Notes under the pieces: generated by a model
Told to the model about the DNA's origin: nothing
Databases searched by the model: none
What the model saw: the letters and a program-made list of their open reading frames with translations, nothing else
IMG/VR virus record: IMGVR_UViG_3300045988_022519
Location: 1 to 57,776 of that record
Reading direction: 5' to 3' (one strand)
Length of the DNA: 57,776 nucleotides
DNA from: a virus
Shown: positions 5,880 through 48,395 of the stretch, piece after piece
Position numbering within the stretch: position 1 is the first letter of the stretch
Layout: the number at the start of each line of letters is the position of its first letter
Translations under genes and position numbers: made by a program

Positions 5880-8800
5880 TCACACCTCCGGAGAATACTT
5901 TAATGCCATGTGACCATCCGATCGTGGCTGCCATACGAAATTTCCGATACGGAACGATTGCAGAACTTCAGCATTTGATATACGCATTTTATCATTTGAA
6001 ACGGATGCGACTTCGATATTATTCGAAGTAAATGACAATTTTGTATTCGTCAAACGCATCTTATTCGGACTTGATGAATTTCCCATATCCATGTATGGAT
6101 TCGATGCATCTTGTCCGAATTGAATATACGATTCTCGTAATTTTATTTCGTTATTAACTGAATCGCTCAAATGTTGTTGGGAATCCTGTATATCACTCAG
6201 GTTTTTATTTGTTGCATTAACATATCCAGTATAATCATCATTTGAAACCTTGTTGGCAATATCGGTAGCCTGATTCTGCACCGTATTCGTGAGATCGTTT
6301 ATAGTATCTTCAGGAGCCGCGGTCCATGGAGTCATACTATTTCCAGGTTCGAGCTTCATCTCACGAATGGTCACGTTACCTTTGGCATTATCCAATCGAA
6401 CAGCAATTCCTTTTACATTCGAATGATTAGTATTTGAAATGTAAAAATGTTTCGAATATGTCTGTTCACTGGTTCCGATATTGATATTAGTAATGCCATC
6501 GCCCATGCCCCATGGATTATCATTCCATTGCGGAAGTGCAGTTCCGCCAGCCGTATCCGACTTTATTTTGAACTGAATATTATACATACCAGCCGGGAGA
6601 TTGCTAAGATTTCCAGCGGCTAAATTGTACATTGCGACGGTTTGATTCGCAGCTTCATTACCGGTTACGACGGTCGGAACACTCGTTTTGAGGAGAAGGT
6701 TCTGTCCACCGACCGATTGCGAATTCTGGAATGCGATCGTCACCTTGTCGTTTGTCTGCGTCAGTTGGGACTGGGTCGCATAGTTCTTCATATCGGCTTT
6801 AGTCTGATAGGTCTTCGACACAGTCGTTGTAATGCTGTCCTTTGCGACCGTGATATCGGATTTCGTGGCCAGACCGGATCCATCAGCGCCCTTGTAATTC
6901 TGAACGACGCCGAGCGCCACCGATTTTGCTGTTTGGTCGACATATGACTTGTTTGCGTAAGCAGACATTCCATCTTTAGTCTGATATGTTTCAGCGACAG
7001 TAGTTTTAAAACCGTTTAGATTCTGTTCCACGGAAGAAACTCGATTGGATGTCGCGGCGGCCTCGGTGATATCACGGAATGCGACGTCATCCCACATAAT
7101 GGTTCCATTGGTTAGGTGCATCACCTCGATTTTGACCGAAGTGATCGAACCATCATCGGGGCATTTCCAATCGACATGTGTTTCCGACCATGACATTGAT
7201 TTGCTGCATGGAGCTTCGGCGATAAATGATCCGTCAGGTTTTGCCAATCTGAGTTTTTCACTGGACGGATTAACGTTCGATGGGACTGACAAATACCAGG
7301 CACAGTATCCCGACAGGCGATACGTGCGTCCCTTGGTGACCGGTATCGTGGTGGCTGATCCAGCCATACCTTTCTCATGAGTCAATGGGCATCGGTAATC
7401 TCCGGTGGCCGCATCGCAGACTAGGACATGTTTGCCATGATAGAATGATCCGATAGAAATACGGAATGGGTTCTTAAGTCCCTTCCACCATTCAGTCGAT
7501 TCAAAACCGCCATCTGTGATGAGGTTGTCACCTGCAAGTGCCGCATCGACAAGGTTAGCGGTTTGACTGATAGTGGCCTTATTGCTGTCAGCGGTACTCT
7601 TAGCCTCATTGGCTGTCTTGACGGTTGCATCGAGTGTCTTACCCTGTTCAGTGATCTTGGTCGAGAGACCCGAAGCGGTCTGTTCCACTGTAGTGGCTTT
7701 AGACATTGCACCATTTGCTGTCTTAGAGACCTCAGTGACCTGAGCTTTAATGGAATTCGCTGTCTGGTTTAATGCACTGGTTGTGGCGTAGTCCGCCATT
7801 CCAGATTTAGTCTGATATGTTTCAGCGACAGTAGTTTTAAAACCGTTTAGATTGGCTTCGAGACTCGTCGCCTTATCAACGGCACTTTGAGCGGTCTTCG
7901 CGTTTGCCGTAATGTTCGCACTAAGCGAATCGGAAGTCGCCTTCAGGCTCGTCTGGGTTGCATAAATGGCATCGTTCTGCGCTTTAGTATTGTAATTCTT
8001 CGACAGATTCAGAGTGACAGCATCTGCGGTCTGCTGAGCCTTCGATGCAGCTGTAACGGCACCATCGGCGGTTCCCTGCGCCTTGGTTACTTCTGCGGAA
8101 ATGCTATCCGAAGTCGCCTTCAGACTTGTCTTGGTCGCATATATCGTATCTGCCTGGGATTTTGTCTGGTAATTCTTTGTCAGATTTACGGAAATGCCAT
8201 CGGCGGTCTGCTGTGCCTTCGACGCGGCTGTCACTGCGCTATTCGCGGTTGTCTTGACCGACTCGACATTCGCCGTAATGGATTCCGCGGTCTGAGTCAG
8301 AGAACTCTTGGTCGCATATGTCTCGGGAATATCGATCTTCAGCTTATCGACATCGCCTTGAGCCTTGTTCGCACTGGATTGTGCGGCATCGGCTGCGTTC
8401 TTCGCTGTGGCCGCATTGCTGACTGCGGTATTTGCCGTCGATTGGGCCTTACCTGCGGCAGTGTTCGCTGCCGTTGCGGACGCCTGTGCATTGTTTGCAG
8501 AAGTCTGTGCCTTGGATGCATCCTCCAATGCCTTGGTGACGTCGGTATCCTGATTCAGTTCCCAAGTATATGTCACACCATCGTCAGAACCGAAACGATA
8601 TGCCTTACCGGTTGATTTGTCGTAATACAGATCACCGGAGTGCTTCTTCTTATCGTCGTTTGTGGTCCAGTCCGAAGCCGGCTTGTTCTCAAGTGTCGGA
8701 ACACCGGTTCCTCTCCATGATTCGATGGCGTTATCAGCAACGTTCTGGAGAGCGGACAATGCATCCTTCGTGGCATATGTCTTTGAGACCGAAGCCGTAA

Positions 8801-10982
8801 TGGAATCCGAAGTCTGCTTCAGATTCGACTGGGTCGCATAGATCTTATCGGCATCAGCCTTGGTCTGATACTCGGTCCTCAGAGTCGTGCTGATCTGATT
8901 GGCCGTCTGCACAGCTGCGGAAGACTGCTTGAGCGAATCAGTTGCAGTCTTGCTTGCTGATTCGGCAGTTGTCTTCGCAGCGGTTGCGGTCTGGGTCGCA
9001 GTGGTGCTCTGGGTAAGAGCGGTCTGCGAATCCTTGTATGCAGATGTGGCAGTGGTTGATGCCTCGGTAGCGGTCTGTTTGGCCTCCGTGGAGACACTTA
9101 GAGCACTTTCGGACTTCTTGACAGCATTGGTGACTTTCGTCGTCAGTTCGCCGAGCTCGGTGGTGTGCTGTTCGATGACTGCATTCGCGGAATCGAGATC
9201 TGATGCGACGTTCTCGGCCTTGGACTGTGCTTCGGCCGCGGCCTGTTTCGCTGCGATGGCCTTTGCATCGACGGCCTTGATGGATTTGTCCAGATCGACG
9301 GTTGATGCATTGGCTTTGTCGGCCGCCTTCTGGGCTGCATCTGCTGCGGACTGTGCTTTGTTGGCGGATGTTTGGGCGGCTTCGACTGCTGTATCCATTT
9401 CGGACTTCACATTTTGAACCTGCTGAGTAAGATCGGTTCTTACCTGATCCGCTTTAGCTGATGCGGCTTCGACCTGCTTGTCGATCTCTGCTGTCTTTTT
9501 CTTCAGTTCCTCAGCTGCCTTGTTCGCAGAATCGGCTGTTGTCTTGGCCTCAGTTGCGGTCTTAGATGCTTCAGTTGCCGTAGTTTGAGCTTTATTTGCT
9601 GTGGTGTTGGCAGTATTAGCAGTCGATTGAGCTTTGTTTGCTGTAGTATTGGCATTGAATGCATCTTCAGTTGCTTTTTGAGCTTTATCGTTTGCCTTCA
9701 CAGCTGTATTATTAGCAGCATCCGCAGTCTTGTTAGCAGTATCAGCAAGTTTGGCAGCTGCTTTTCCATAGCTCATAGCGGTATTGACATCTTCATAGTT
9801 TCTGTCAATGCTGCTATTGATTTGCTTTAGATAATTGGATTGACGACCAACGAGACTAACGTATTCGTCACCGAATGTATATGTTGTTTGAGATGGATCA
9901 TTCAAATCCAATTCCATTTCAGACAGCATAAAATAGTCATCCAAATTATGTCGGGCGGAACGAACTCGACACGCATCACCAATGTTCAGTTGTTCATATC
10001 CCGGATATGCAATCGACAGATCAATTGCTTTTGTTTCGATCGTGACTTTTGGAGACATCTGAAGTCTAAGCTGAAGAACCGCAGCTTTCAGAAGATTTGA
10101 AGGATCCAAAATATCATTATTGCTATAATAATATTCCCGATAACCATAACGTTTCGTTGCCGATAGCGAATATACGCAATCACCAGATTTTACTATATCC
10201 GAATCGGTATCAAAAGTGTTATCAGGAAGATTTTTGATGTTAATTGGTTTTGGATCCTTAGTATCTCCTTCTTTCTTTTCAGGAGTTCCGCCTCTAGGGA
10301 TCACAACCGTATAAAGTTCGTCATCATTTTCTTTATACGAAATTGAAAGAATATTCGATCCAAAATCAATAATCTGACTATTTGTAGAATGAACATCTGC
10401 ATACAGATTTAGAATGTTTCTATCATCTTTATATTCTACAAATAGATATCCGCCAAGACTGTCCAATACTTTATCATTGATTTCATCAAGAGTTGTTGGA
10501 TAGCCATCATTGGATCGAAGAATATAATCGTTTTTATCTAATGCAGCACCTTGATTCACTCCGACTTCAAAACGTTCGGATGCATCCTTGACATGAAGAT
10601 TATGCTGATCGATAAGCCATTGGAAATATCCCTCGACCGATGTCGGAGCTGTCAGATCAGCGTCACCAGGAACCGTTGAGTAACTACGAACACGAGTATG
10701 ATTCAAATATTGAAGTACCGAATTACAAGCTACAATTTTATATCCATAGTCATCAATTTCAATTTCGTTTATTTTTCCACGAAATTTAAGAACATTATCC
10801 GAATAAAATTCGACTAGTCCTTTATCTTTTTCAATGGTATTATACAATGGATGATTTGGAGCAATCGAGAAATCCAAATATGAAACAGAATTAGATTTAC
10901 CAGTATACTTAGCATCTGTAATTGCCGTAGATTGCATATAAGGATCAAACAAAATTTTCGAATCATATGTTAACTGGTACAT
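5880..10982 (-). CDS. Tail-associated (Tal, prophage-tail N-terminal domain) / tail fibre protein, about 1700 aa
   Basis: N-terminus resembles siphovirus Tal (Prophage_tail). Long Ala/Thr/Lys/Gln coiled-coil repeats and a CBM4/9-like module (NLITDGGFESTEWWKG). ATG at 10982 has AAGGAG 5 nt upstream; the ORF track starts at TTG 10985. Confidence 0.75.
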   Translation of the reverse strand: MYQLTYDSKILFDPYMQSTAITDAKYTGKSNSVSYLDFSIAPNHPLYNTIEKDKGLVEFYSDNVLKFRGKINEIEIDDYGYKIVACNSVLQYLNHTRVRSYSTVPGDADLTAPTSVEGYFQWLIDQHNLHVKDASERFEVGVNQGAALDKNDYILRSNDGYPTTLDEINDKVLDSLGGYLFVEYKDDRNILNLYADVHSTNSQIIDFGSNILSISYKENDDELYTVVIPRGGTPEKKEGDTKDPKPINIKNLPDNTFDTDSDIVKSGDCVYSLSATKRYGYREYYYSNNDILDPSNLLKAAVLQLRLQMSPKVTIETKAIDLSIAYPGYEQLNIGDACRVRSARHNLDDYFMLSEMELDLNDPSQTTYTFGDEYVSLVGRQSNYLKQINSSIDRNYEDVNTAMSYGKAAAKLADTANKTADAANNTAVKANDKAQKATEDAFNANTTANKAQSTANTANTTANKAQTTATEASKTATEAKTTADSANKAAEELKKKTAEIDKQVEAASAKADQVRTDLTQQVQNVKSEMDTAVEAAQTSANKAQSAADAAQKAADKANASTVDLDKSIKAVDAKAIAAKQAAAEAQSKAENVASDLDSANAVIEQHTTELGELTTKVTNAVKKSESALSVSTEAKQTATEASTTATSAYKDSQTALTQSTTATQTATAAKTTAESASKTATDSLKQSSAAVQTANQISTTLRTEYQTKADADKIYATQSNLKQTSDSITASVSKTYATKDALSALQNVADNAIESWRGTGVPTLENKPASDWTTNDDKKKHSGDLYYDKSTGKAYRFGSDDGVTYTWELNQDTDVTKALEDASKAQTSANNAQASATAANTAAGKAQSTANTAVSNAATAKNAADAAQSSANKAQGDVDKLKIDIPETYATKSSLTQTAESITANVESVKTTANSAVTAASKAQQTADGISVNLTKNYQTKSQADTIYATKTSLKATSDSISAEVTKAQGTADGAVTAASKAQQTADAVTLNLSKNYNTKAQNDAIYATQTSLKATSDSLSANITANAKTAQSAVDKATSLEANLNGFKTTVAETYQTKSGMADYATTSALNQTANSIKAQVTEVSKTANGAMSKATTVEQTASGLSTKITEQGKTLDATVKTANEAKSTADSNKATISQTANLVDAALAGDNLITDGGFESTEWWKGLKNPFRISIGSFYHGKHVLVCDAATGDYRCPLTHEKGMAGSATTIPVTKGRTYRLSGYCAWYLSVPSNVNPSSEKLRLAKPDGSFIAEAPCSKSMSWSETHVDWKCPDDGSITSVKIEVMHLTNGTIMWDDVAFRDITEAAATSNRVSSVEQNLNGFKTTVAETYQTKDGMSAYANKSYVDQTAKSVALGVVQNYKGADGSGLATKSDITVAKDSITTTVSKTYQTKADMKNYATQSQLTQTNDKVTIAFQNSQSVGGQNLLLKTSVPTVVTGNEAANQTVAMYNLAAGNLSNLPAGMYNIQFKIKSDTAGGTALPQWNDNPWGMGDGITNINIGTSEQTYSKHFYISNTNHSNVKGIAVRLDNAKGNVTIREMKLEPGNSMTPWTAAPEDTINDLTNTVQNQATDIANKVSNDDYTGYVNATNKNLSDIQDSQQHLSDSVNNEIKLRESYIQFGQDASNPYMDMGNSSSPNKMRLTNTKLSFTSNNIEVASVSNDKMRISNAEVLQSFRIGNFVWQPRSDGHMALKYSPEV
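6975..7022. repeat. 48-nt perfect direct repeat (copy 1) inside the fibre gene
   Basis: tttagtctgatatgtttcagcgacagtagttttaaaaccgtttagatt, identical to 7806-7853; encodes NLNGFKTTVAETYQTK. Confidence 0.9.
7806..7853. repeat. 48-nt perfect direct repeat (copy 2) inside the fibre gene
   Basis: Identical to 6975-7022; the two copies are 831 nt apart and bracket the CBM-like module. Confidence 0.9.
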
Positions 10983-10994
10983 CAATTCTCCTTA

Positions 10995-12859: not shown

Positions 12860-15800
12860 TTAAATTCCTCTCCTTTGGCGTAGACCAAGAGCCTGATCCA
12901 TCGGCTTCGCAATAGTCGAGGCAAGTTTCCTGCCATCGATATAAAGCTCAGTCGGAGGTTGCTTGGTGAGATCGATATTGCTTACATCATCCCTCAGTGA
13001 ATTGATCGCATCAGTTACTGTCTGGTTGCTTGCAATCATGTCGGACTGATATTGGCGCAGAATATTCTGATCACTCTTGACATCCATTATATTTCGAGCC
13101 ATTTTAGAACTTACAGACATGCGATAATTACTAGATATCGTATCTATAGAACTTCCAATATTTGAAATATCAATCTTAGGTGTTATGATCGGAGAATATC
13201 CAGACATGAAATCAGTATTCATCACAGCCTGATTTGCAGAATCGAGTGCATTTTTAGCCATGTCGGTTCCTGCAATCTTCACAAGATCAGAATATTTCTT
13301 CATACCATTGGCTAAACCAATTGCTGACCATCGACCGGTCTTGAAGAATTCACGAGATGGTGAATGAACTCCAAGTGTCCTGTTTGCAGCATCCAATGCC
13401 TGCTTTGCAGCTGATACCGCGGCCCTATTTATGATTCCAGAACCATCAGAAAGACCATTTGCGATACCCCGAGCCAAATTCGTACCAGTCGAATAGAAAG
13501 ATTGATAATATGAATTCAGTGAGGAAACGGCTTGACTTATTGCATTAGATGAACTGCTTCCCAAATTCCGAATCTTAGAAATAAAACTATTCTTAAGTCC
13601 ATTTCCAAGATTGCTACCGGCTTGCTTGAAAGATCCAACCATTCCATTTATCGTTGAACATGCTGCATTGAGATTCGATTGAGTGGATGTATTTATTCTG
13701 GATGTACTACTGGCAACATTATTCGCTGCTGTGGTAAATGCACTAGACAAAGAATTCACAGATCCATTTATACTTCCAGTACTTGCAGAAACAGAAGTAG
13801 CGATCTGCATAAATGATCCGCCGATATTCGCAGTCGACAGCGACGCATTTATTGATGCACATGCAGTTTGAATCTGAGCAGCTAAAGTCCCAAGCTGCTC
13901 ACCAATAGTTGTCGTGACATTCGGAATTGTATTGAGAGTGTTTACGAAACTTACAATATTCGAAGCATTGGTTGCGAAATCAATACCCGAAAGTGCACCG
14001 ACTCCATTAGCAAACACAGCCAGAGATTTACCGACTGTGTTCATTTCATTCGCTGCATCGGTCGAACCTGCGAAATTCTTGACACCTTTTGCCATAGTTG
14101 CAAGGTCGGTTCCAATATTCGGAGGTACTGAAACTCCATTCCACTTCTTAACTGAACCAGCAAGATCACCAAGAGGACCAGTTACCTGACCTAGAGACCA
14201 TCCACCAGCAAATGCAAGAGTGAAAGACTTGATGCCATCCGAAAGATTCTGGAGATCACTCTTGATATTCGGAGGTACCGAAACTCCATTCCACTTATTT
14301 ATTGCCGGAGCAAGCTGTCCCATACCAGTAGCAACTGCTGGTAGATTCTCAGCACCCCAACCAGATAAAGTGAATGATTTAACGCCATTGGCAAGATTCT
14401 GCAGATCGGTACTGATGTTCGGTGGAATTGAAATACCATTCCATTTTGACATCGCAGGAGCCAACTGACTCATACCAGTTGCAACTGTTGGAAGATTCTC
14501 AGCGCCCCAACCTGAAAGTGTGAATTTACCAACTCCCGAGGCAAGACCGGACAAATCACTTTCGATATTCTGAGGTACCGAAACACCGCTCCATGCAGAA
14601 ATTGCTGGAGCAAGATTCGTCATACCTGTGGCAACTGCCGGAATATTCTCAGCACCCCATCCAGAAAATGTAAATTTTCCTACTCCGGAAGCAAGAGCAG
14701 AAAGATCAGATTCAAGATTCGGAGGTACCGAAACTCCGTTCCATTTATCAACGGAATCAGCAAGATCGCCCAATGGTTTTGCATATGTTGCAATGGCACC
14801 AGCACCGAATCCCGAAAGAGAATTCATCAATGAACCAAGGCCAGCAGCACCAAGTGCACCACCCATTGCCGCAAGACCACGACCAATCTCGTCCCAAGAC
14901 ATTGATCCGAATTTCTTGAGTGCATCTGCGATGTCACCGAGAGACTGGACTGCAAGGAGAATGGCTCCACCGCCAAGTAGAGCGGGAAGACCTGCCAGAC
15001 TTCCAAGAGCTCCGGTAACAATAGCGATCTCACCAAGAGCACCGCCCATGGCAACGAGACCTCGTCCTACTTCATCCCAGGACATTGATCCCATCTGTTT
15101 AAGTGCATCTGCAATATCGCCAAGAGACTGGACTGCCAGTAATATGGCTCCGCCACCGATAAGAGATGACAATCCTGCAAATTTACCTAAAGCTCCAGTA
15201 ACGATAGCAATCTCACCGAGAGCACCACCCATGGCTGCAAGACCACGACCGATCTCGCTCCAGGACATATTTCCGAGCTTCTCAAGCGATGTAGCGATAT
15301 CCCATAGACCATCACAGACTAGACGAATCGACCCAGCTCCAATGAGTCCGGAAATACCTACAAGTTTACCGAGTGCTCCAGACACAATAGCGATCTCGCC
15401 AAGAGCACCACCCATGGCTGTAAGACCACGACCGATCTCGCTCCAGGACATTCCTCCCATTTTGAGGAGAGCGGTGGAAATGTCATAAAGACCATTAGTA
15501 ACTATTCGAATAGATCCAGCCGCAAAGATACTTGAGAATCCACCGATCTTTCCAAGGGCTGCAAGAACGATACCCATCTCAACAAGAGCACCACCCATGG
15601 CTGCAAGACCGTGTTCGATCTCTTCCCAGGACATTGATCCGAATTTCTTGAGTGCATCTGAGATGTCACCGAGACCGGAAACCACCATAAGAATGGATCC
15701 AGCCGCAAAGATGCTGGAGAATCCACCGATCTTTCCAAGGGCTGCAAGAACGATACCCATCTCAACAAGAGCACCACCCATGGCTGCAAGACCATGTCTG

Positions 15801-18800
15801 ATCTCTTCCCAGGAAAGGTTCGACAATTGTATCAATGGCTGCGCCATCATCTGCATTGCCTTGGCCATTGCGATCATTGCGACCGAATTCTTAAGACCCA
15901 CCTTCGAGAAACTAAGAAGTTTCATAGCGCCGGCCATCTCACCAAGTGCTGCACCAACAGCCGTGAGACCTTTGGCTATCTGTTCCCATGAAAGGGTTGA
16001 TAGCTGCTGAATCGGCTGAACAAGCATCTGAATGGCTTTGGCCATCGCGATCAAAGAAACCGAAGTCTTGAGAGAAACCTTCTTATCAAGACCCTTCATC
16101 GACTTGTTCAAAGCGAACATCATTACGCCAATTGAAACAAGTCCCTTGGCAATCTGTTCGACATCAAGGTCTTTAAGAGTGACCATTGCATCGGAGAGCA
16201 TCTGGATCGCCTTGGCATAAATAACCAATGCAGCGGCCGATTTGACGATCGACTTGCCCTTAGCGATGGTATTGGCCGATTTCACCAAAGACTTAAAGGA
16301 TTGATTCAGCATCGCCATCATGGCGCCCATGGCTGTGATGGACGTTCCAAGGGAAAGGACATCAATCTCAGATATTGTCTTAAGTGAATGGGCAAGAATA
16401 CCTATGGCAGCTGCGACTGCGACAATCGATGCGACCTTAAGACCCTGTGTGAATCCAGAAAGAGCATCTTTAACACCGTTGAGAATATCCTTAAGACCAA
16501 CTGCATCACTTGCAGCTTCCTTTGGCTTCTCGAATATTCCATTGATCTTTTCAAATACGTCCTTGACCTGATCAAAGGCCTTGGATATCTTCTGGATCAT
16601 TGCAAATAGGCCACCGCCGAGAAGACCCGCAAGTATATCACCTAGACTGACATTATTGGTGATCCATTTGATTGCCTCACCCAATCCATGTGTTATGGTT
16701 GTGACGACCTTGGTTATTACGTCACCTACTGAATCAAATATGGATGAGAACTTGTCTTTAAAGTCGCCTGAAGAAGTCAGGACCGACTTTAGTTTGTCCT
16801 TAAGCGATTCAAGTTTATTACCAATCACATCAAATGCATCGGTAGAAGATTTTATGCTTCTTCCAAGATCATTAAAATAATTGATAATGGACTGTACAAT
16901 TTTGATTATGATCTGAATTCCAGTCGCGATTCCGTTAGCGACCTTTACGAATATACCGGAAGATTTAATCGTCTCATCAATCTTGACCAGAAAATCGCCC
17001 ATTGAGGCGGTACCTTTAAGAATGCTATTGACGAATCCGCCCATAGCACCGTTTCCAGCAAGCTTTCCGATTGCTCCGATTACTGCGAATATAGCTTGTT
17101 TACCAATATCCAGAATCGCAAACAATCCCTTAAATGATCGTTTGATCAAATCAAGTTGTTCAGATGATGGCTTGATTGACTCCATAAGATTACGGAATTG
17201 AACGGTATACTGATAAAGAGTCTCTCCAGCCATCGGTGGGAAAATATCAGTCCATGCGCCCTTTACGGACTGTATAACCTTCCACAAAGAACTGAAGGCG
17301 GAAGACAAACCTTCAATTATATTTTCTCGACCGGATTTACGATTGAATTTCTTTGCGAATTCATCAGCCGAGATCGAACCATCATTAAGAGCTTGAGCTA
17401 ACTTGTTTGTCTTGTCGATTGTCGATGCGGAAATATCATTATTCTTTCGTTCCTCATCCGACATTTTGTTGTAGGAATCGGCCATATCATTGACGGATTC
17501 CTTAAGCATGTCTCCAGTTACCCAACCCTGTTTACATGCTTTTTCGAAAGAACCGGTATCATTGATGAGTTTCTCAATATTGACACCGTGATTCTTTGCG
17601 ACCTTAGTCAAGGATTCATTAAACTTTGCGGTATCCTCGATACCTTCATTCACAAATTGTTTATAACCAGTACTAAGGTTTCCTAGCAATGCATTTCTTG
17701 CATTTGCAGAATCATTAATGATTTTACCAAGACTATCGGAAATTCCAGTCCAAAGATCCTTGGCTTCCTCGAAATCACCGATCATCAACTGCCAGGATGT
17801 TGTCCAACCAGAACCGACAGCCTCTTTAAGTGTATCGATAAGCTGCGAAAATGTTTTGACCTTAGTGGCCGCATCCATGGCTGTTTTTGCCATATCAGCA
17901 ATCTGTTTGGCTTCTTCTTGGGTATATCCTTGGGCAACCAGATCCTTTATGGCATTATTATAATCTTCGGCAGTATCAACCGTAAGTGCAAACTGCTTAA
18001 GGGTATCAGTAAGAACTTGAGTTGTTAGCCATCCAGTTTGAAGAGATTCACGGAATGAGCCCTTAGCCTCGATAGCTGCTTTTGCACCAGTTTTAAGATG
18101 CTCAGAAGTTCGAATAAGTGCTTGCTGGAATACTTCACCGCCCATACCTGCATTGACAACGGAATTCCAGTCCATAAGCTTAACAGTACCAGCTGCGATT
18201 GCCTGCGAAAGCTGGTACATTGCAGTCGATGCCTGCTGAGATGTAGAACCTGAAACTGCTGCAAGGTTTGCAATACCCTGAATGGATGAAACAGAAGTCT
18301 TCAGATCGACACCGGCAGCTGTGAATGTACCGATGTTTTTCGTCATCTCCTGGAAATTATAAATCGTCTTATCAGCGTATGTATTAAGTTCACTTAGAGC
18401 AGCATTGACCTGAGTAAGGGTTGTTCCCTTGCTTGCGGTGTTCGCCATAATCGTCTGAATAGAACCCATGTACTGTTCATATTCAGCGAAACCTTCTCGA
18501 ATACCCTCAGTAGTACTCGAAATGATCTTTTGCCCACAATCAATTGCGGCATTTGTAAGCTTTTGGATTGCAGAAAATGCAACGGCTGCCATTGCACTGA
18601 ACTTCGATCCAGTTGATATGGCAGCTTCCTGCATTCCTGACATATTAAATTTACTGACAGCTGACGAAACCTTATCGATGCCATCAGTAGCACCCTTAAG
18701 TTTAAGACTTTGCTTAAGTTTTTCGAGCAGAGAAGATGTTGATTTTACCCCCGATTGAAATTGAGAGTTATCGATCTTCATCTTGACTACACGTTCATCA

Positions 18801-18811
18801 ATACTGCTCAC
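12860..18811 (-). CDS. Tape measure protein (1983 aa)
   Basis: TP901-type TMP core (NTYADKTIYNFQEMTKNIGTFTAAGVDLKTSVSSIQGIANLAAVSGSTSQQASTAMYQLSQAIAAGTVKLMDWNSV), size, hydrophobic repeats, position. Confidence 0.9.
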   Translation of the reverse strand: MSSIDERVVKMKIDNSQFQSGVKSTSSLLEKLKQSLKLKGATDGIDKVSSAVSKFNMSGMQEAAISTGSKFSAMAAVAFSAIQKLTNAAIDCGQKIISSTTEGIREGFAEYEQYMGSIQTIMANTASKGTTLTQVNAALSELNTYADKTIYNFQEMTKNIGTFTAAGVDLKTSVSSIQGIANLAAVSGSTSQQASTAMYQLSQAIAAGTVKLMDWNSVVNAGMGGEVFQQALIRTSEHLKTGAKAAIEAKGSFRESLQTGWLTTQVLTDTLKQFALTVDTAEDYNNAIKDLVAQGYTQEEAKQIADMAKTAMDAATKVKTFSQLIDTLKEAVGSGWTTSWQLMIGDFEEAKDLWTGISDSLGKIINDSANARNALLGNLSTGYKQFVNEGIEDTAKFNESLTKVAKNHGVNIEKLINDTGSFEKACKQGWVTGDMLKESVNDMADSYNKMSDEERKNNDISASTIDKTNKLAQALNDGSISADEFAKKFNRKSGRENIIEGLSSAFSSLWKVIQSVKGAWTDIFPPMAGETLYQYTVQFRNLMESIKPSSEQLDLIKRSFKGLFAILDIGKQAIFAVIGAIGKLAGNGAMGGFVNSILKGTASMGDFLVKIDETIKSSGIFVKVANGIATGIQIIIKIVQSIINYFNDLGRSIKSSTDAFDVIGNKLESLKDKLKSVLTSSGDFKDKFSSIFDSVGDVITKVVTTITHGLGEAIKWITNNVSLGDILAGLLGGGLFAMIQKISKAFDQVKDVFEKINGIFEKPKEAASDAVGLKDILNGVKDALSGFTQGLKVASIVAVAAAIGILAHSLKTISEIDVLSLGTSITAMGAMMAMLNQSFKSLVKSANTIAKGKSIVKSAAALVIYAKAIQMLSDAMVTLKDLDVEQIAKGLVSIGVMMFALNKSMKGLDKKVSLKTSVSLIAMAKAIQMLVQPIQQLSTLSWEQIAKGLTAVGAALGEMAGAMKLLSFSKVGLKNSVAMIAMAKAMQMMAQPLIQLSNLSWEEIRHGLAAMGGALVEMGIVLAALGKIGGFSSIFAAGSILMVVSGLGDISDALKKFGSMSWEEIEHGLAAMGGALVEMGIVLAALGKIGGFSSIFAAGSIRIVTNGLYDISTALLKMGGMSWSEIGRGLTAMGGALGEIAIVSGALGKLVGISGLIGAGSIRLVCDGLWDIATSLEKLGNMSWSEIGRGLAAMGGALGEIAIVTGALGKFAGLSSLIGGGAILLAVQSLGDIADALKQMGSMSWDEVGRGLVAMGGALGEIAIVTGALGSLAGLPALLGGGAILLAVQSLGDIADALKKFGSMSWDEIGRGLAAMGGALGAAGLGSLMNSLSGFGAGAIATYAKPLGDLADSVDKWNGVSVPPNLESDLSALASGVGKFTFSGWGAENIPAVATGMTNLAPAISAWSGVSVPQNIESDLSGLASGVGKFTLSGWGAENLPTVATGMSQLAPAMSKWNGISIPPNISTDLQNLANGVKSFTLSGWGAENLPAVATGMGQLAPAINKWNGVSVPPNIKSDLQNLSDGIKSFTLAFAGGWSLGQVTGPLGDLAGSVKKWNGVSVPPNIGTDLATMAKGVKNFAGSTDAANEMNTVGKSLAVFANGVGALSGIDFATNASNIVSFVNTLNTIPNVTTTIGEQLGTLAAQIQTACASINASLSTANIGGSFMQIATSVSASTGSINGSVNSLSSAFTTAANNVASSTSRINTSTQSNLNAACSTINGMVGSFKQAGSNLGNGLKNSFISKIRNLGSSSSNAISQAVSSLNSYYQSFYSTGTNLARGIANGLSDGSGIINRAAVSAAKQALDAANRTLGVHSPSREFFKTGRWSAIGLANGMKKYSDLVKIAGTDMAKNALDSANQAVMNTDFMSGYSPIITPKIDISNIGSSIDTISSNYRMSVSSKMARNIMDVKSDQNILRQYQSDMIASNQTVTDAINSLRDDVSNIDLTKQPPTELYIDGRKLASTIAKPMDQALGLRQRRGI
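14063..14734 (-). repeat. In-frame tandem repeat family B in the TMP (150-nt / 50-aa period, about 4.5 units)
   Basis: Units VSVPPN(L/I)ESDLS.LASGVGKFT.SGWGAEN.P.VATGM..LAPA...W.G; unit starts near 14734, 14584, 14434, 14284, 14134. Confidence 0.85.
14735..16168 (-). repeat. In-frame tandem repeat family A in the TMP (about 183-nt / 61-aa period, about 8 units)
   Basis: Units (M/L)SW.EI..GL.AMGGAL.E..IV..ALGK..G.S......GSI.....L.DI..AL.K.G.; M/L codons at 15994, 15817, 15634, 15451, 15268, 15085, 14902. Confidence 0.85.
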
Positions 18812-42777: not shown

Positions 42778-42832
42778 GGATAACCAACTAATGAAGGTCG
42801 CAGCAATTATAACGACTACGAAACAAATAGTG

Positions 42833-42907
42833 TCATTTAGCGTCATTTAATAATTTCTCCATTGTCTTGTTTGATTTAGGATTCAGTAAAATATGGTGAG
42901 CATACAT
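42833..42907 (-). pseudogene. Remnant duplicate of the 3' end of the PolB palm gene
   Basis: Reads ...LLNPKSNKTMEKLLNDAK* versus the authentic C-terminus ...ISPNPESNKTMERLFNGVN*; 19-nt identical core (42858-42876 = 43061-43079). Confidence 0.4.
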
Positions 42908-43019
42908 AATCAATAACGAATATGCAGATTAATAGAATCACAGAACAAATAATATCACTCATTGTTGATTCTGTATTGCAAAGCCATACCATAACAAGTA
43001 TGAAAATTAGTAATGCCAT
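42876..43019 (-). CDS. Possible small hydrophobic protein (47 aa)
   Basis: MALLIFILVMVWLCNTESTMSDIICSVILLICIFVIDYV...; internal ATG of the 112-aa ORF-track entry that otherwise overlaps the polymerase gene; no clear RBS. Confidence 0.25.
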   Translation of the reverse strand: MALLIFILVMVWLCNTESTMSDIICSVILLICIFVIDYVCSPYFTES

Positions 43020-43035
43020 TAAAACAACAATGATA

Positions 43036-44145
43036 TCAGTTAACACCATTGAATAGTCTTTCCATTGTCTTGTTTGATTCCGGATTCGGTGAAATATAAG
43101 GTTCATCTGAAACAAACCATCCATAGTCACCTCGTTCATTGATCGCTCCAATTGCATCATCGGCAAGTTTTTCGTAATATGACATGTCGATTTCATTATT
43201 GAGATTACGATCACGGACTATTGATGCTTCTTTCCACCGATAGCCTTTTGCTCCAGTGGCACTTGAATATCCTCCTTTGCCATCGCTTCTGACAAGTTCT
43301 CCACCGCCGAAACCACTTTTGACTGGAATGAATGCACCAACTTTTCCAACGAATGAGTAATTATGCTCATCTGCTGGTAGATCTTCATTGAAGTCGAGAT
43401 ATAGTGATGTCTGTACACTTTTAGTCTCCGATAGATCCGATAGGCTGATTGGCTCACCTGAAAATAAGGTCTTGAATACATATGGAACCTGAAACTGCAA
43501 CCCTGTAGCGGTCCATTCACCAGCGTGTTCACCCCATGCGGAATGAGCAATATACGTGGACTTATTGACAATGCAAAGCTTGTCATAAGTTGCCTCGTGT
43601 TCGAATGTGTATCCATACTTATGTCCAAAATCAGTCACCCAGTTGATAATATAATCATCAGCATCTGCGATCTTGATCGAATCAGTTTTGATGTGGACTA
43701 CGGTATAACCCATCTCCTGGACTTTATGCTTCAGCGTGATCATAAATAATGCACCACGCTTGGCAACTTTATTGTCCTTGTTTCGATCTCCAGGACCAGC
43801 TGCGACATCGTTGAACCTTGTCGGAAAATGCGCCGAAGTCAGACCATAAACAGAATTGATCGGAATCTTCAATGCTGTTGACAGGATCTTCTGGTTCTCA
43901 CGAAGCTCGGCATCTGTGAATTTGTTGTCCAGAAGCTTTTCCGCGGTTGCGAAATCTCCATGTTTGATTGCGATACGCGTATCCAGAATATCCTTGTATC
44001 GTTTTGTATATGGTCCGAACATGTTCATAGCAATGATCGAATGCGGATGCATCGAAGCAATATCCAGCAATGCGACATTACCGAACATGCCACCTAGCAT
44101 TGGTTTGTCAGTCATGATTTCTGTAATACTCCTCCGAAAGTTCAT
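43036..44145 (-). CDS. Family B DNA polymerase, C-terminal (palm/thumb) half
   Basis: Motif A LLDIASMHPHSII (about 44040-44075), motif B KIPINSVYGL (about 43841-43870), motif C HIKTDSI (about 43669-43697). Alternative start ATG 44115 (MTDKPMLGG...) is coupled to the stop of the preceding small ORF. Confidence 0.85.
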   Translation of the reverse strand: MNFRRSITEIMTDKPMLGGMFGNVALLDIASMHPHSIIAMNMFGPYTKRYKDILDTRIAIKHGDFATAEKLLDNKFTDAELRENQKILSTALKIPINSVYGLTSAHFPTRFNDVAAGPGDRNKDNKVAKRGALFMITLKHKVQEMGYTVVHIKTDSIKIADADDYIINWVTDFGHKYGYTFEHEATYDKLCIVNKSTYIAHSAWGEHAGEWTATGLQFQVPYVFKTLFSGEPISLSDLSETKSVQTSLYLDFNEDLPADEHNYSFVGKVGAFIPVKSGFGGGELVRSDGKGGYSSATGAKGYRWKEASIVRDRNLNNEIDMSYYEKLADDAIGAINERGDYGWFVSDEPYISPNPESNKTMERLFNGVN

Positions 44146-44281
44146 CGAGTGATTTGGCTAATGAGGGCCAATTCCTTCTGACCCTGTCTTTCATATTACG
44201 ATGATATTCAGGACACCTGCCTTCAACAGACCATGCCAAAATAACATCGACAACTGATCGATTTAAAGCCTTGTTACTCAT
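44108..44281 (-). CDS. Small ORF (57 aa) inside the polymerase split
   Basis: [34 protein letters not shown]...; TAATG coupling upstream and ATGACTGA coupling downstream. Confidence 0.4.
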   Translation of the reverse strand: MSNKALNRSVVDVILAWSVEGRCPEYHRNMKDRVRRNWPSLAKSLDELSEEYYRNHD

Positions 44282-44382
44282 TATTCATCTCCGAAAAATA
44301 GAGCAATGGCGAGAAATATCACGATAATAGCAATACCGATCAATGTCTCGCCACTGAAGTTTTCAAATATCTCTTCAATCAT
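44281..44382 (-). CDS. Small membrane ORF (33 aa) inside the polymerase split
   Basis: [33 protein letters not shown]; ATGA overlap with the thyA stop. Confidence 0.4.
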
Positions 44383-45272
44383 ACAGCCACAGGAGCCTTG
44401 ATTGCGGGATGACACTTGTAGTTTTCCAGATGGAAGTCTTCAAGCTTGTAGCTGAAAATATCCTTGGCTTTATCGATCTTCATCTTCGGGAAAGGATATG
44501 GAGTTCGATGAAGCTCTGTTTCAACCTGATCGAGATGATTCAGATAAATATGGCAATCGCCACCAGTCCAGATCAAACGTCCAGGTTCAAGACCAGTCTG
44601 TTGGGCCATCATCATAGTCAACAGAGAATATGATGCGATGTTAAACGGAACTCCGAGGAACATGTCTGCAGACCTCTGATAGATCTGACAATCAAGACGT
44701 TCGGATTCCGTAACATAGAACTGGAAGAACGTATGACATGGAGGAAGAGCCATATCAGGAATCTTGGACGGATTCCAGGCACTCACAATGATCCTGCGAG
44801 AATATGGATCGTTCTTGATAAGATCGATGGCATTCTGTATCTGATCAATATGATCGCCATTCCAGTCACGCCATTGCTTACCATAGATCGGTCCGAGATC
44901 TCCATTCTCGTCTGCCCATTCATCCCAAATATGAACACCATTGTCATTCAGGTATTTGATGTTGGTATCACCATTGAGGAACCACAGAAGTTCGGCAATT
45001 ACACCTTTCAAATATACCTTCTTGGTGGTAACCAGTGGGAAATATAGCGACAGATAGAATTCCATCTGGAGACCAAATGTCGACAGAGTACCAACTCCTG
45101 TTCGATCCTTACGAATGGTTCCGAGATCGACTACCTTTTTCAATGTCTGTTCATAAATATCGTTACAGAATGTTGTGGAATCACGAAGATGCGCGACTCT
45201 GACAAAATCATTGTCCATATATTTCAGAACATTCTTATACATGTCTGGAAGGGTTTCTTGAATATCAGTCAT
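44379..45272 (-). CDS. thyA: Thymidylate synthase (ThyA family)
   Basis: [24 protein letters not shown] (catalytic Cys), [27 protein letters not shown]. Confidence 0.95.
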
Positions 45273-45291
45273 GATTAACTCCTTTTATCTA

Positions 45292-45537
45292 TTAGATGAA
45301 AAATAGTGCTTTATCGTCTTGAAGATAACTGCTAACCGCAGTGGTATTCGATTTTGACAGATACGTTACTTCGTAAATACGATCATCGCTTGGTTCATCT
45401 GTTACGACAAACGCATAGTAATTCCCACAAATATATCCACTCGATTTGATAGACAGATTGTAATCTCTTTTCTGTTTTAAATATCCCTTCTTATCGATAT
45501 AGCGACGAACCGCATATTCGATTAACTGATAATTCAT
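45292..45537 (-). CDS. Hypothetical protein (81 aa) inside the polymerase split
   Basis: ATG 45537 with GGGAGGAAC RBS and ATGA overlap with the stop of the 953-aa gene. Confidence 0.5.
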   Translation of the reverse strand: MNYQLIEYAVRRYIDKKGYLKQKRDYNLSIKSSGYICGNYYAFVVTDEPSDDRIYEVTYLSKSNTTAVSSYLQDDKALFFI

Positions 45538-48395
45538 TGTTCCTCCCATGGATGTTTAATATTCATATAATCCTGATCGACATCGCCATTCTCCATGCCA
45601 TACACAAATACGTAACCGCCTTCCGACGGATACTCGCCCATATACTTGGACTTTTGATCCTTTGGTGCATACGGATCAAATGTATAGCCAGGAAATAGTT
45701 CAGCAAGATCCGGATAATTAAATTTGCTTTGTGGATTACGCTCGTCACCGAATATGATCTTGGCTGTATGCGTATTGTTGGTATCGTTTACTGTAAGACC
45801 TGAAAGCTGAGCCAGAATTTTACGAGCTTCGAAATCACCACTTAGATGATTGAAGACTGCCTTTGTGGCTCGAACATCGTCCTTACAATATGATTCCACC
45901 AATGGCCATTGCTCTTTTGGAATATCAGAATCCCAATCCATGCCAAGCTCATGATGATCGATTCCCAATTCGATCTCCCATTTCTTAAGAGATTGCTTCT
46001 TTGATGAGAAATCGTAGATATCCGCATATGAGATGTTGTATGCTTGACCGAATAATGCATCTTTTTGACCAGATACAATACGTTTCGACAGATCATACAA
46101 TTGGGCATTACTATAATTAAGAAATCCCCAAGCATAGAGAATATGATTGTCATACTTACGGTTATTGAATCCGACCAGATTCTGTTCCATAAGCGTGATA
46201 ACGGATTCCCTAGGTGGATTGATCCATGATCTGACAATATCGGAATCACTATCCATAAAGCAGATCATAAAGAGATTCGGAAACACCTCGACATCGTAAA
46301 ATATGATTTTATCCGTGTTTGACGGATTTAATCCCTCTGGCATTTTTTCAGATTGGAATTTCATATTCGTCACCACAGTCAGGCAATAATCTGCCCAATG
46401 TGTTGATCCCATGGCGAAGTGCATGACCTTTTGTTGGAGATCTCTGACATCATAAACCAAGCCTTGCTCATATGCCTCATCCAGTACCTTTGCGATGAAA
46501 TCGATACTTGGTTTGGTTCCAGGTTGGTACTTTTTGAGAAGAGCATTCTTTATGATGTTCCTCAGATGCCTTTCATCCTGAATCTCCTGTTGATTGATCA
46601 AGGTCTTTTCTCCTTTCAACGGAAGTCCTGAGGAAATATGGGCCACTTCGAGATCATTACATCTGGATAACTGTCGTCTTAAAGACGATTTGCCTTTGTA
46701 AACTTTGATCTCAATATGAGTACTGTAAAGATTCTTCAATCTCGATACATCACCATCATAAATATAATGGAGATGCAGACCGTTTCCGGACTTTGACACT
46801 TCAGTATATGTAGGAGGAAACTCAGAAGCTGCTTTGATATTTGCTTCCAGATTCTTCTCTCCATCCTCACCTCGTACATCAAAGTCGAGAACAATATGAT
46901 TCTCGGGTACTCTGACCCAATGAAGTTTCTTGGTATCAATATCTTTCAATGTGGTTTTTACATTGTCCCATGCCTCCTTTGGAGCTCCGGATTCATCGTT
47001 TCTGGCATATTGAGCTTGATAATCTGCAGCAAGTTTATCGAACTCAGAAATATCAGTATCCAAACGGATCCAGCTAGTCGGTGTTTCGGTCTTTGTCTTT
47101 TTCGATGTGAACTTGTCATATTTGAATCCCTGGAATGTGACATTACTTCCATGTCGTTCCATTGTATCAAAATATGTCTGAAGTTCATACATGAAGTCGG
47201 AACGTTTAAGCATTACATTGACTTTGAAGTCATCCGCCCATGCTTTATACGTTCTCCACAACATTGCGAGACTCAGTGGATCATCGGTATCGAATATCTC
47301 GAATTCATCCTGAATGAAATTATACACATCATTCGTTCGAGCAATCATATCAGTTGGAATATATCCATCATAATATGATCGACCGAGATTCCGATAAATC
47401 TTCAGACAATGATCGGCAATCGCCCCGAGCTCGAATTTGATTCCGTCAAGATCTTTGAAATACTCATCCGGCTTTATTTTCTTACCAGTCGGATGAATAT
47501 CAATCAATCTTCGAATCAAACCAGATTTCGAGTCAGTTACTTTTACCGGATGATTCGTAGCCATGAATAACATGGTGCGAAGTTCGATCGGATACTGTTT
47601 GACACCTTTCTCATTCACCTGTATAGTTTCGTGAGATACTATCTGGTTGAGAATCGTGTTATTCCATAGACGTGACAAATCACCATCATGTTGAATCGCC
47701 ACCAATGGAGCATTTCGGAATGCAGCAGTTGCAAACTGATATCCTTTACCGAGATCTTCAGCTGAGAAATATGCGATGTATCCAGGAAATAGTTCTTCAA
47801 TGATGTTCAAAATCGTCGATTTACCAGTTCCAGGATCACCATAGATCACGAACATCTTTTGGATCTTCTGAATATCATGACCATCAATCATGGCTCCGAT
47901 ACCCCACTCTAGTTTTTGTCTCTCAGCTGGAGCATAGAGTGTCGACATAAGTTCCTCATAGCAAGGACACTTACCCGGTTTGATTGAATAATCAAGTTTC
48001 AGTGTCGCATAATCTTCACGCTCTGGAACCTGATCAGAAAATATCATCTTCTGATTCAGGGTTCCAGGACTATTATCAAGGTTTCTTAGGAAACCCAAAT
48101 ATCGATTCCAACACCCATTGCTTCCATCATTCATGAACATTGGTGCGACAACAGCACCATCTTTAGATTCATAGGAATCATAGAAGTTTTGAATATCATT
48201 GTCGATCAGTTTACTGAGTGTTTCACGTTTCTGAGACCACAGATGAGTTGAAGGATCATAGACAGCGTAGAACTCGCCTCCTTTTACCAACAAATCATGA
48301 AACCCTCGGACCTTCGGATCTGCATAGATTTGTTCATGGCCTTTGGTCGTAGGCTTCACACGAATCTTTACCTGATCCAAGGTTACTCCTTTCAC
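45534..48395 (-). CDS. Fusion protein: SF3 (D5/P4-type) helicase, AEP primase-polymerase, PolB 3'-5' exonuclease domain
   Basis: Walker A VIYGDPGTGKST. AEP motifs VLDFDV and SKSGNGLHLHY. ExoI FYDVEVF (about 46287-46298), ExoII NNRKYDNH (about 46140-46172), ExoIII YCKDDV (about 45862-45895). Ends PSEGGYVF... just before where PolB motif A is expected. Confidence 0.8.
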   Translation of the reverse strand: MKGVTLDQVKIRVKPTTKGHEQIYADPKVRGFHDLLVKGGEFYAVYDPSTHLWSQKRETLSKLIDNDIQNFYDSYESKDGAVVAPMFMNDGSNGCWNRYLGFLRNLDNSPGTLNQKMIFSDQVPEREDYATLKLDYSIKPGKCPCYEELMSTLYAPAERQKLEWGIGAMIDGHDIQKIQKMFVIYGDPGTGKSTILNIIEELFPGYIAYFSAEDLGKGYQFATAAFRNAPLVAIQHDGDLSRLWNNTILNQIVSHETIQVNEKGVKQYPIELRTMLFMATNHPVKVTDSKSGLIRRLIDIHPTGKKIKPDEYFKDLDGIKFELGAIADHCLKIYRNLGRSYYDGYIPTDMIARTNDVYNFIQDEFEIFDTDDPLSLAMLWRTYKAWADDFKVNVMLKRSDFMYELQTYFDTMERHGSNVTFQGFKYDKFTSKKTKTETPTSWIRLDTDISEFDKLAADYQAQYARNDESGAPKEAWDNVKTTLKDIDTKKLHWVRVPENHIVLDFDVRGEDGEKNLEANIKAASEFPPTYTEVSKSGNGLHLHYIYDGDVSRLKNLYSTHIEIKVYKGKSSLRRQLSRCNDLEVAHISSGLPLKGEKTLINQQEIQDERHLRNIIKNALLKKYQPGTKPSIDFIAKVLDEAYEQGLVYDVRDLQQKVMHFAMGSTHWADYCLTVVTNMKFQSEKMPEGLNPSNTDKIIFYDVEVFPNLFMICFMDSDSDIVRSWINPPRESVITLMEQNLVGFNNRKYDNHILYAWGFLNYSNAQLYDLSKRIVSGQKDALFGQAYNISYADIYDFSSKKQSLKKWEIELGIDHHELGMDWDSDIPKEQWPLVESYCKDDVRATKAVFNHLSGDFEARKILAQLSGLTVNDTNNTHTAKIIFGDERNPQSKFNYPDLAELFPGYTFDPYAPKDQKSKYMGEYPSEGGYVFVYGMENGDVDQDYMNIKHPWEEQ

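Follow-up and report, generated by a model that had tools for sequence, protein, structure and literature searches.

A phage family B replicase probably made as two subunits, with a thyA cassette in the gap between its genes

We describe a DNA replicase gene in two pieces in the window, by which we mean the IMG/VR virus record IMGVR_UViG_3300045988_022519 over its full length of 57,776 bases. This ~58-kb genome has tailed-phage gene content, with long open reading frames (ORFs) nearly all on the minus strand, and at 43036-48395 it carries the replicase as an N-half of 953 amino acids (aa; subunit A) and a C-half of 359 aa (subunit B), separated by thyA and three small ORFs. We propose that the phage makes a two-subunit replicase, that the split is older than thyA, that the subunits reassemble, and that the gap between their genes serves as a landing site for other genes; taken as a whole, we regard this explanation as quite probable. 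An earlier note on this DNA had read the locus as a family B polymerase (PolB) split just before motif A, a reading that the tiling of one protein family by the two genes, together with motif and profile matches, now supports.

One replicase family encoded in two genes

Compared with PHROGs, the 953-aa protein matches phrog_4210 ("DNA polymerase") over positions 2-949 of 1304 (E=0) and the 359-aa protein matches it over positions 953-1296 of 1304 (E=3e-126), confirming at the level of sequence comparison that the halves jointly span a single intact phage replicase family of ~1,300 aa, with nothing missing. Curtobacterium phage Pippin15 gp56 and IMG/VR locus L011 are among the intact homologues (1,266-1,272 aa), and the contiguous junction in such proteins reads ...GEGGLVRAEPGMHSDVALYDVQSMHPNSII. 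An exhaustive search with the C-half returned 791 representative clusters (50% identity), and most of the best 150 are 1,240-1,450 aa long. Because most of the matches listed fall in this length range, we take the fused helicase-primase-exonuclease-polymerase to be the usual form in this large family, whose members go by the name "DNA primase/polymerase" in actinophage annotations. The helicase-before-primase order, which the earlier note had thought unusual, is standard in the family. The features of the locus are as follows.

48395-45534 (45534..48395), minus: subunit A gene (polB N-half, 953 aa), with a GTG start that overlaps the upstream stop as GTGA; N-terminal domain, SF3/D5 helicase, AEP, PolB N-terminal/3'-5' exonuclease, first palm-hairpin strand and conserved tail
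47076..47885, minus: SF3 (D5/P4-type) helicase region of subunit A, residues ~171-440, Walker A GDPGTGKST
46641..46937, minus: putative AEP primase-polymerase core, residues ~487-585 (LDFDV, SKSGNGLHLHY)
45720..46346, minus: PolB-type 3'-5' exonuclease, residues ~684-892 (Exo I FYDVEVF, Exo II NRKYDNH, Exo III YCKDDV)
45537..45620, minus: subunit A junction end, GGYVFVYGM (residues 926-934) followed by the tail ENGDVDQDYMNIKHPWEEQ (residues 935-953)
ATG 45537 to stop 45292, minus: orf81, whose ATG overlaps the N-half stop as ATGA and is preceded by GGGAGGAA
45272-44379, minus: thyA (297 aa), the first gene downstream of orf81
44382-44281, minus: orf33 (33 aa), in ATGA overlap with the thyA stop, with a hydrophobic core
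44281-44108, minus: orf57 (57 aa), in TAATG overlap with the end of orf33
ATG 44115 to 43036 (43036..44115), minus: subunit B gene (polB C-half, 359 aa), overlapping the orf57 stop; from the motif A strand onward, the palm, fingers and thumb of a family B polymerase
44038..44070, minus: motif A LLDIASMHPHS, with catalytic D18 of subunit B
43843..43869, minus: motif B KIPINSVYG
43675..43695, minus: motif C HIKTDSI
42826..42894, minus: apparent remnant 3' end of an alternative subunit B allele, a 69-nucleotide (nt) direct repeat 78% identical to 43029-43097

The helicase region of subunit A is matched by Pfam DUF5906 (PF19263) at 52.5 bits against a cut-off of 27.6 (E 9.5e-14), weakly by Pox_D5, and by TIGR01613 primase_Cterm at 8e-16, a score under that model's curated cut-off. 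For the AEP core, phrog_695 'DNA polymerase/primase' gives 6.5e-5 and Pfam Prim-Pol E=0.078, below its cut-off; the assignment is putative and draws on the motifs and this one PHROG match only. The exonuclease domain matches phrog_1252 'DNA polymerase' at 1.2e-32 over residues 684-892. Scored over 13 split and intact homologues, the Walker A residues G186/G189/G191/K192/S193/T194, the AEP motif I/II residues D504/D506 and S534/G537/G539/H541/H543, and the Exo I-III residues D701/E703, N744/Y748/D749 and Y836/D840 are all invariant. The description of the 953-aa protein as a fusion of SF3 helicase, AEP and exonuclease can be retained from the earlier note, every motif quoted there being present and invariant in split and intact homologues alike. 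In sequence searches of the PDB, neither the N-half by itself nor a profile built from 13 sequences matched more than P-loop noise.

Subunit B carries the remaining polymerase motifs, which had been placed in a separate downstream gene and which are likewise all present and invariant in split and intact homologues. We call a locus type-1 if it is broken at the window's break point, and motif conservation was scored over 10 type-1 C-halves. Motif A residues L16, L17, D18, S21, H23, P24 and S26 are invariant and align with LDYKSLYPS of E. coli Pol II; the same holds for K83, I84, I86, N87, V89, Y90 and G91 of motif B (KIIMNAFYG in Pol II) and for H141, K143, T144, D145, S146 and I147 of motif C (YGDTDS in Pol II). 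A 22-sequence profile that includes the window protein finds E. coli Pol II (3k57) in the PDB at 4.5e-8, along with archaeal and eukaryotic PolBs. When the AlphaFold2 (AF2) model of homologue P0028 (predicted local distance difference test score, pLDDT, 81) was compared with the PDB by Foldseek, Pol alpha matched at 2e-11 and archaeal PolB at about 3e-10, and the matches to Pol alpha, Pol delta and archaeal PolB extend over palm, fingers and thumb at E ~1e-10 to 1e-11.

All the cistrons have Shine-Dalgarno sequences and start codons of their own, and stop and start codons overlap. GGAGGAG lies 13 nt upstream of the subunit B ATG at 44115, and three relatives (L003, L004 and L006) have a stop codon one codon ahead of the subunit B Met. 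Because this stop sits one codon upstream in relatives, we take ATG 44115 as the true C-half start; of the two starts considered earlier, this one stands and 44145 does not. The gap contents reported before, an 81-aa ORF, a canonical thyA, and 33-aa and 57-aa ORFs in tight coupling, were verified for both the ORFs and their overlaps. No convincing strong terminator or promoter pattern was found within the gap on the coding strand.

The same break with and without thyA

The nearest GenBank phage is BitterVaud1 from the honeybee gut, with ~65% protein identity and Bifidobacterium asteroides as the host in its record. Its polymerase locus (MT006236.1 38321-42951, our locus L001:3495-8125) is split at the same residue and has one unrelated 213-aa ORF in the gap. 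Because both polymerase halves and this ORF are all labelled "hypothetical protein" in the record, its replicase is effectively unannotated. Further relatives with the same break carry different gaps.

L003-L009 (7 IMG/VR contigs): same break, thyA cassette variants in the gap
L010: same break, gap occupied by a single 100-aa ORF
L012-L014: same break, gap of 59 bp
L017: same break, gap of 86 bp
L016: same break, zero gap; the genes overlap by 8 nt in different frames
L018-L020: same break, gap of 3.6 kb with ten small ORFs, the first an orf81 homologue

The identical break thus occurs in at least eight distinct lineages (L001, L003-L010, L012-L014 and L016-L020). Across the split loci the two polymerase genes are always adjacent and keep their order, and a conserved ATG and a Shine-Dalgarno sequence are present at every type-1 C-half. 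Since the same break occurs without the cassette in L016, L012 and L017, the split predates thyA. On this comparison of sequences, the thyA cassette reads as a later occupant of a pre-existing intercistronic site and not as the cause of the split. The split is old, and it is fixed in the clade to which the isolated Bifidobacterium phage BitterVaud1 belongs. An assembly error, which the earlier note had named as a possible refutation, is excluded as the source of the split: the window and the type-1 junction regions contain no N, and the architecture is present in 7 IMG/VR contigs and an isolated phage and recurs in several independent assemblies from ENA, NCBI and Logan. A scan of genome contigs for prophages gave mostly intact homologues, from isolates and metagenome-assembled genomes (MAGs) of Firmicutes; in no named host did it show a type-1 prophage. 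We found no literature on the split in this replicase family or on the BitterVaud1 polymerase.

Both polymerase halves are under strong purifying selection. Ratios of nonsynonymous to synonymous divergence (dN/dS), estimated by the Nei-Gojobori method against relatives, lie at 0.02-0.09 in the N-half, at 0.01-0.07 in the C-half and at 0.08-0.22 in thyA; over informative pairs only, they are 0.16-0.19 for orf81 and 0.24-0.27 for orf57. The 33 codons of orf33 are too short for an estimate, and the gene is 85-97% conserved in L003-L009. The thyA product matches Pfam Thymidylat_synt PF00303 at 1.1e-118 over model positions 2-266 of 266, and the NCBIfam equivalog NF002497 at 431 bits against a cut-off of 327. 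Of the small ORFs, orf81 is conserved in L003-L009, and orf57 is present in L003 and L005-L007 and absent from L004, L008 and L009. Neither these three ORFs nor the BitterVaud1 213-aa ORF and the L010 100-aa ORF have a match in Pfam, PHROGs or NCBIfam, and a tblastn search with orf81 against 50,697 phage records gave no match. From its position in the loci compared, the small orf81 protein seems tied to the place directly after the N-half. L018:2419-2721 encodes an orf81 homologue (46% identity, E=7e-15) that comes first after the N-half, the rest of the L018 gap being unrelated.

The break has a defined position in the predicted fold. In an AF2 model of a contiguous homologue, a GGYVY strand (residues 90-94) is followed by an E-P turn (95-96) and the GMYGNVALLDI motif A strand (97-107), all with pLDDT >90. 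The N-half ends with GGYVFVYGM and then ENGDVDQDYMNIKHPWEEQ, and the C-half starts with MTDKPML and then GGMFGNVALLDIASMHP; because the two ends map there on the model, the cut falls at the hairpin turn that leads into the motif A strand. Over seven lineages, pairwise identity is 0.94 for GGYV[FW]VYGM, 0.58 for the tail and 0.63 for the whole N-half, and the tail keeps the invariant pattern VYGM.[ND]G....Y.....WE. Several unsplit proteins have additional residues at this very point: P0121 (1,368 aa), P0026 and L106 read ...GGYVWVYGM-[65-90 aa]-LGGMFGNV... in one frame, the insertion-bearing unsplit loci being P0121, P0026, L106:8001-9389 and L026:2054-3346. In alignment, the start of this insertion (its first ~20 residues, GM.[NS]G....Y.....W) pairs colinearly with the type-1 tails, and its end with the C-half heads (K..LGG). 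From these alignments, the break is placed inside a clade-specific surface-loop insertion, and because it lies there, subunit A retains ~18 residues of the insertion start as its tail and subunit B the K..LGG head. In the AF2 model, the centre of the insertion folds with high confidence into a small helical module (pLDDT 96-97), held on low-confidence linkers from the hairpin and bearing the conserved pattern ...ERL....Y......D[FY]D..HP[DE]L...; the split forms are without this module.

The tail GMENGDVDQDYMNIKHP had been said to echo motif A GMFGNVALLDIASMHP. In local BLOSUM62 alignments of seven N-half tails with motif A regions, with 5,000 shuffles each, the similarity does not rise above chance (p ~0.1-0.7 over the set, ~0.1-0.5 for the window and most relatives, best 0.02 for one sequence), and we rejected the tail as a decayed motif A duplicate: it is conserved, not decaying. 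"GM" flanks the insertion on both sides even in single polypeptides, and uninserted proteins have one (AEPGMYGNV). The only repeat flanking the insertion is the very short GM(x)(N)G[DN]V, too short to evaluate. Separately, one insertion-bearing locus, L026:1990-2080 on a rumen MAG contig binned as Bacteroidales, has a ~20-codon deletion and a frameshift just before GEYPGEGGYVWVYGM; either the copy is defective or the contig is misassembled there.

The gap is also a place of exchange. Among phages with polymerase halves 98-99% identical to those of the window, orf81 is only 72-95% identical and there are two thyA alleles (~78% identity, with different N-termini); some cassettes carry an extra orf81 paralogue. 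Compared with L008, the window has 55-80% nucleotide identity in the N-half, rising to 97% from ~60 nt before the N-half stop, then 95-98% in orf81 and thyA and 83-93% in the C-half, and the recombination breakpoint maps to the subunit A junction end (45537..45620). Synonymous divergence (dS) differs three-fold to twenty-fold between N-half, thyA and C-half of the same genome pair. Given the jump in identity, the unequal dS and the cassette variation, the cassette and the halves are exchanged by homologous recombination in conserved flanks; on these comparisons the gap is a recombination hot spot, and the polymerase halves and the cassette differ in history. Within the gap, a 92-aa orf81 paralogue lies at L004:6713-6991 and L008:6713-6991, and L008:6403-6675 is a 90-aa chimeric ORF in which the N-terminus of the paralogue is joined to an N-terminal fragment of thyA. 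The paralogue and the chimeric ORF are traces of illegitimate recombination inside the gap.

A further trace of allele exchange is the remnant at 42826..42894. This copy, 134 nt downstream of the stop of the live gene, reads ...NKTMEKLLNDAK / ...ILLNPKSNKTMEKLLNDAK, each closed by a stop, and the live subunit B ends in ...NKTMERLFNGVN and a stop. The ending of the remnant is the live C-terminus in L006, L007 and L009, and L006 carries a single copy of that 3' end. From the sequence, the arrangement looks like a ~203-nt replacement or insertion at the 3' end of the gene, with the old gene end left behind.

Breaks also occur elsewhere in the family. A second split site lies ~35 residues upstream, before FPGY. 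It is empty, with a 15-nt spacer, in L023-L025 (17 contigs read) and holds an HNH_3/NUMOD homing endonuclease in L015 and L037; in L015 this is a 165-aa HNH_3 and I-HmuI NUMOD-like endonuclease at 6493-6990 that overlaps the N-half stop by 4 nt. The third site, ~90 residues before motif A, was seen on five contigs, among them L021 (3350-7329) and L022, where an 884-aa N-half and a 442-aa C-half starting MTSTVNDTTNTLTTRIIFG meet in an ATGA overlap. Both extra sites were verified on long N-free contigs. Because three split sites lie close together in the family, we regard the linker between the exonuclease and motif A as a recurrent fission zone, and at least one of the fissions in it belongs to the classic homing-endonuclease type. 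Homologues in prophages and MAGs are mostly unbroken.

Not every apparent break is real. In a search of 5.8 billion proteins, the best 120 C-half matches were all <625 aa, and some of them are fragments or artefacts. A pair of 99% identical proteins, P0022 (split) and P0023 (with an unsplit loop and split elsewhere), was considered as a snapshot of a split event and rejected, both being scaffold-gap artefacts: the apparent breaks fall at runs of 10 N that shift the frame (L106 ~7950-7960 for P0023, L107 ~4960-4975 for P0022).

A proposed two-subunit replicase and its rivals

We propose that the replicase, one ~1,300-aa protein in most relatives, would be made here as two polypeptides from one polycistronic message. 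Subunit A comprises the helicase, putative primase, exonuclease and first strand of the palm beta-hairpin, and subunit B the second, motif A strand and the rest of the palm, fingers and thumb. By analogy with split polymerases described elsewhere, the subunits may reassemble non-covalently, likely by strand pairing across the hairpin and possibly with the conserved tail as a clasp between them; as with gp43A/gp43B, assembly would yield an active proofreading polymerase, here linked to the helicase-primase. The intercistronic point, in an essential, presumably co-transcribed operon and flanked by conserved coding sequence, could act as a permissive landing site, where accessory genes (here orf81-thyA-orf33-orf57) would be gained, lost and swapped by homologous recombination in the flanks. 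Co-expressed with the replicase, thyA might supply dTMP in step with replication.

Several observations weigh against this proposal. Pfam DNA_pol_B (PF00136) stays below threshold on subunit B (E=0.08, 12 bits against a cut-off of 23); because the motif, profile and fold tests are positive, we file the protein as a divergent-branch PolB despite this miss. Co-transcription as one polycistronic message is presumed from gene spacing only. For the tail, a docking role is pure conjecture, and the corresponding residues in the model of the unsplit homologue have pLDDT 47-77. Finally, in a neighbour-joining tree the intact insertion-bearing forms are nested within the split clade; the loop insertion may have come first, with the gene later splitting within it, or some lineages may have re-fused their halves, their insertion then being a former intercistronic region.

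The origin of the split is where competing accounts are strongest. A homing endonuclease or similar selfish element could have made the original cut and later been lost or replaced, the emptied site then collecting genes. We rate this as possible but on the unlikely side. The site ~35 residues upstream is occupied in L015/L037 and empty in L023, occupied and empty states are also found in gene 43 of phages 25 and 44RR (PMC2988022), and the short repeat at the junction would fit an insertion event; on the other hand, searches of Pfam, PHROGs and NCBIfam found no HNH, GIY-YIG or LAGLIDADG domain in the gap ORFs of L001, L010 and the window, and a dispensable loop such as the in-frame insertion of unsplit relatives could have gained a stop and a start codon, a route that needs no endonuclease. 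That a mobile thyA cassette itself split an intact polymerase and left a duplicated junction, as the earlier note had suggested, we consider very unlikely. The cassette clearly moves from genome to genome, GM(x)(N)G[DN]V stands on both sides of the break, and a homing endonuclease does occupy another split site of the family (L015). Against this, the same break is found where the genes overlap by 8 nt (L016), where 59 bp (L012) or 86 bp (L017) separate them, and where the inserts are unrelated (L001, L010 and L018); the similarity of tail and motif A is not significant, and the tail is homologous to the start of an in-frame loop insertion. With cassette-free breaks in hand and the tail accounted for by that insertion, the duplicated junction is given up.

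What becomes of the two products is a separate matter. Introns and inteins are well known from phage polymerase genes, and the L016 ORFs overlap by 8 nt in different frames, as one might expect if the halves were rejoined into one polypeptide by an intron, a split intein, ribosomal bypass or frameshifting; even so, we find such rejoining scarcely credible. The gap ranges from -8 nt to 3.6 kb with genes inside it under selection, the non-homologous tail (19 aa) and head (8 aa) are far too short for a HINT fold, the junction has none of the Cys/Ser and His-Asn residues, and every C-half has an ATG and a Shine-Dalgarno sequence. No intein Pfam matches were obtained at the split polymerase and no recoding signal was found at the split. 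Rfam yielded no match to the window at gathering score, and a search of 42800-46000 at E<=5 brought up only chance-level matches (E>2). This empty Rfam result, the range of gap sizes and the selection on orf81, thyA and orf57 agree with the earlier view of a translated operon, not an intron or intein. The split might instead have inactivated the polymerase, with one or both fragments kept for another role, such as a helicase-primase-exonuclease, and the host polymerase used for synthesis. Reassembly in this phage is proposed by analogy only, and the C-half by itself is without the N-terminal and exonuclease domains; yet purifying selection on the C-half is as strong as on the N-half or stronger, no catalytic residue of motifs A, B and C varies in a clade whose members are down to about 52-65% identity, and both genes remain adjacent and ordered. 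We hold inactivation to be decidedly unlikely.

To return to the two-subunit proposal, a bolder extension is that the break is exploited. The locus would then be dedicated to gene exchange, with the polymerase flanks as homology arms and cargo or subunits moving between co-infecting phages without an endonuclease; alternatively, a gap protein (orf81) would be a new mobility or polymerase-accessory factor. We consider this extension doubtful. If true, fission at three nearby sites of the replicase would reflect selection for modular subunit exchange and not accident.

Comparison with other fragmented genes

Split phage polymerases are already established; what is new here is the lineage, the position of the break, the series from intact gene to cargo-bearing gap, and a metabolic gene as cargo. 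The PolB of Methanothermobacter thermautotrophicus reportedly consists of two polypeptides that assemble into an active enzyme, a finding credited to Kelman et al. 1999. It is said to differ from the arrangement in the window in being archaeal, with unlinked genes, another break point and no cargo slot.

The closest likeness is gp43A/gp43B of T4-related Aeromonas phages 44RR and 25, as reviewed in PMC2988022. There too two neighbouring cistrons encode a family B polymerase, the site between them is vacant in one of the phages and filled in a relative (by a homing endonuclease gene), and it is likewise uncertain whether the occupant caused the split; the split 43A/43B products of phage 25 co-purify and are polymerase-active (PMC2988022, citing Petrov et al. 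2010). In contrast, the window holds a helicase-primase-PolB fusion of siphophage-like genomes, a different polymerase lineage, broken at the hairpin turn just before motif A and inside a clade-specific loop insertion. Its gap carries metabolic cargo (thyA and small ORFs) and not a homing endonuclease or intron, and ranges across the clade from 0 to 3.6 kb.

Genes in pieces also arise through free-standing homing endonucleases, such as mobE in nrdA of phage Aeh1 and mobA in T4 gene 60 (PMC2988022). In those cases an essential gene of replication or nucleotide metabolism is divided between two cistrons, and the two products have to reassemble (PMC2988022), as we propose for the window. Relative L015, with its HNH/NUMOD gene at a nearby site, matches that arrangement exactly, whereas the endonuclease is absent from the window gap and from every type-1 gap examined. 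The OM43 phages MEP401 and MEP402 have a split polymerase with a small uncharacterised ORF between the parts, conserved across related genomes (PMC10580990). They belong to an unrelated phage group in which a metabolic gene in the gap was not reported, and their authors left the possibility of an intron open (PMC10580990), which the sequence excludes here. In the fractured genes of Dassa et al. 2009 (PMC2677866), which combine split inteins with a homing endonuclease between the parts, a free-standing gene lies between two halves of a replication gene, as in the window. Those halves bear split-intein domains and are joined by trans-splicing (PMC2677866); the window has neither room for an intein nor intein motifs.

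Within one family, then, there is a series of states: intact; intact with the loop insertion; split with an empty gap; and split with 0.3 to 3.6 kb of cargo. Because of this series and the two other, independent split sites, the order of loop insertion, fission and colonisation is testable by phylogeny. Split phage polymerases are natural experiments both in cutting multi-domain enzymes and in the colonisation of essential genes by selfish or accessory DNA. The hairpin-turn break before motif A is a candidate site for engineering two-piece PolB enzymes, and thyA in the gap illustrates that a nucleotide-metabolism gene can reside within a replicase operon. In practice, gene-clustering pipelines will place the two halves in separate families, and scaffold gaps like those behind P0022 and P0023 will make metagenome protein catalogues overcount split genes.

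A megablast search against GenBank phages found no DNA nearly identical to the window. Two stretches away from the replicase depart in composition from the genome, whose average GC content is about 0.41. At 7000-10000, within a 1,701-aa minus-strand ORF (5880-10985), GC is 0.49-0.53 and AT skew -0.16 to -0.32; at 14000-16000, within a 1,983-aa minus-strand ORF (12860-18811), AT skew is about +0.15.

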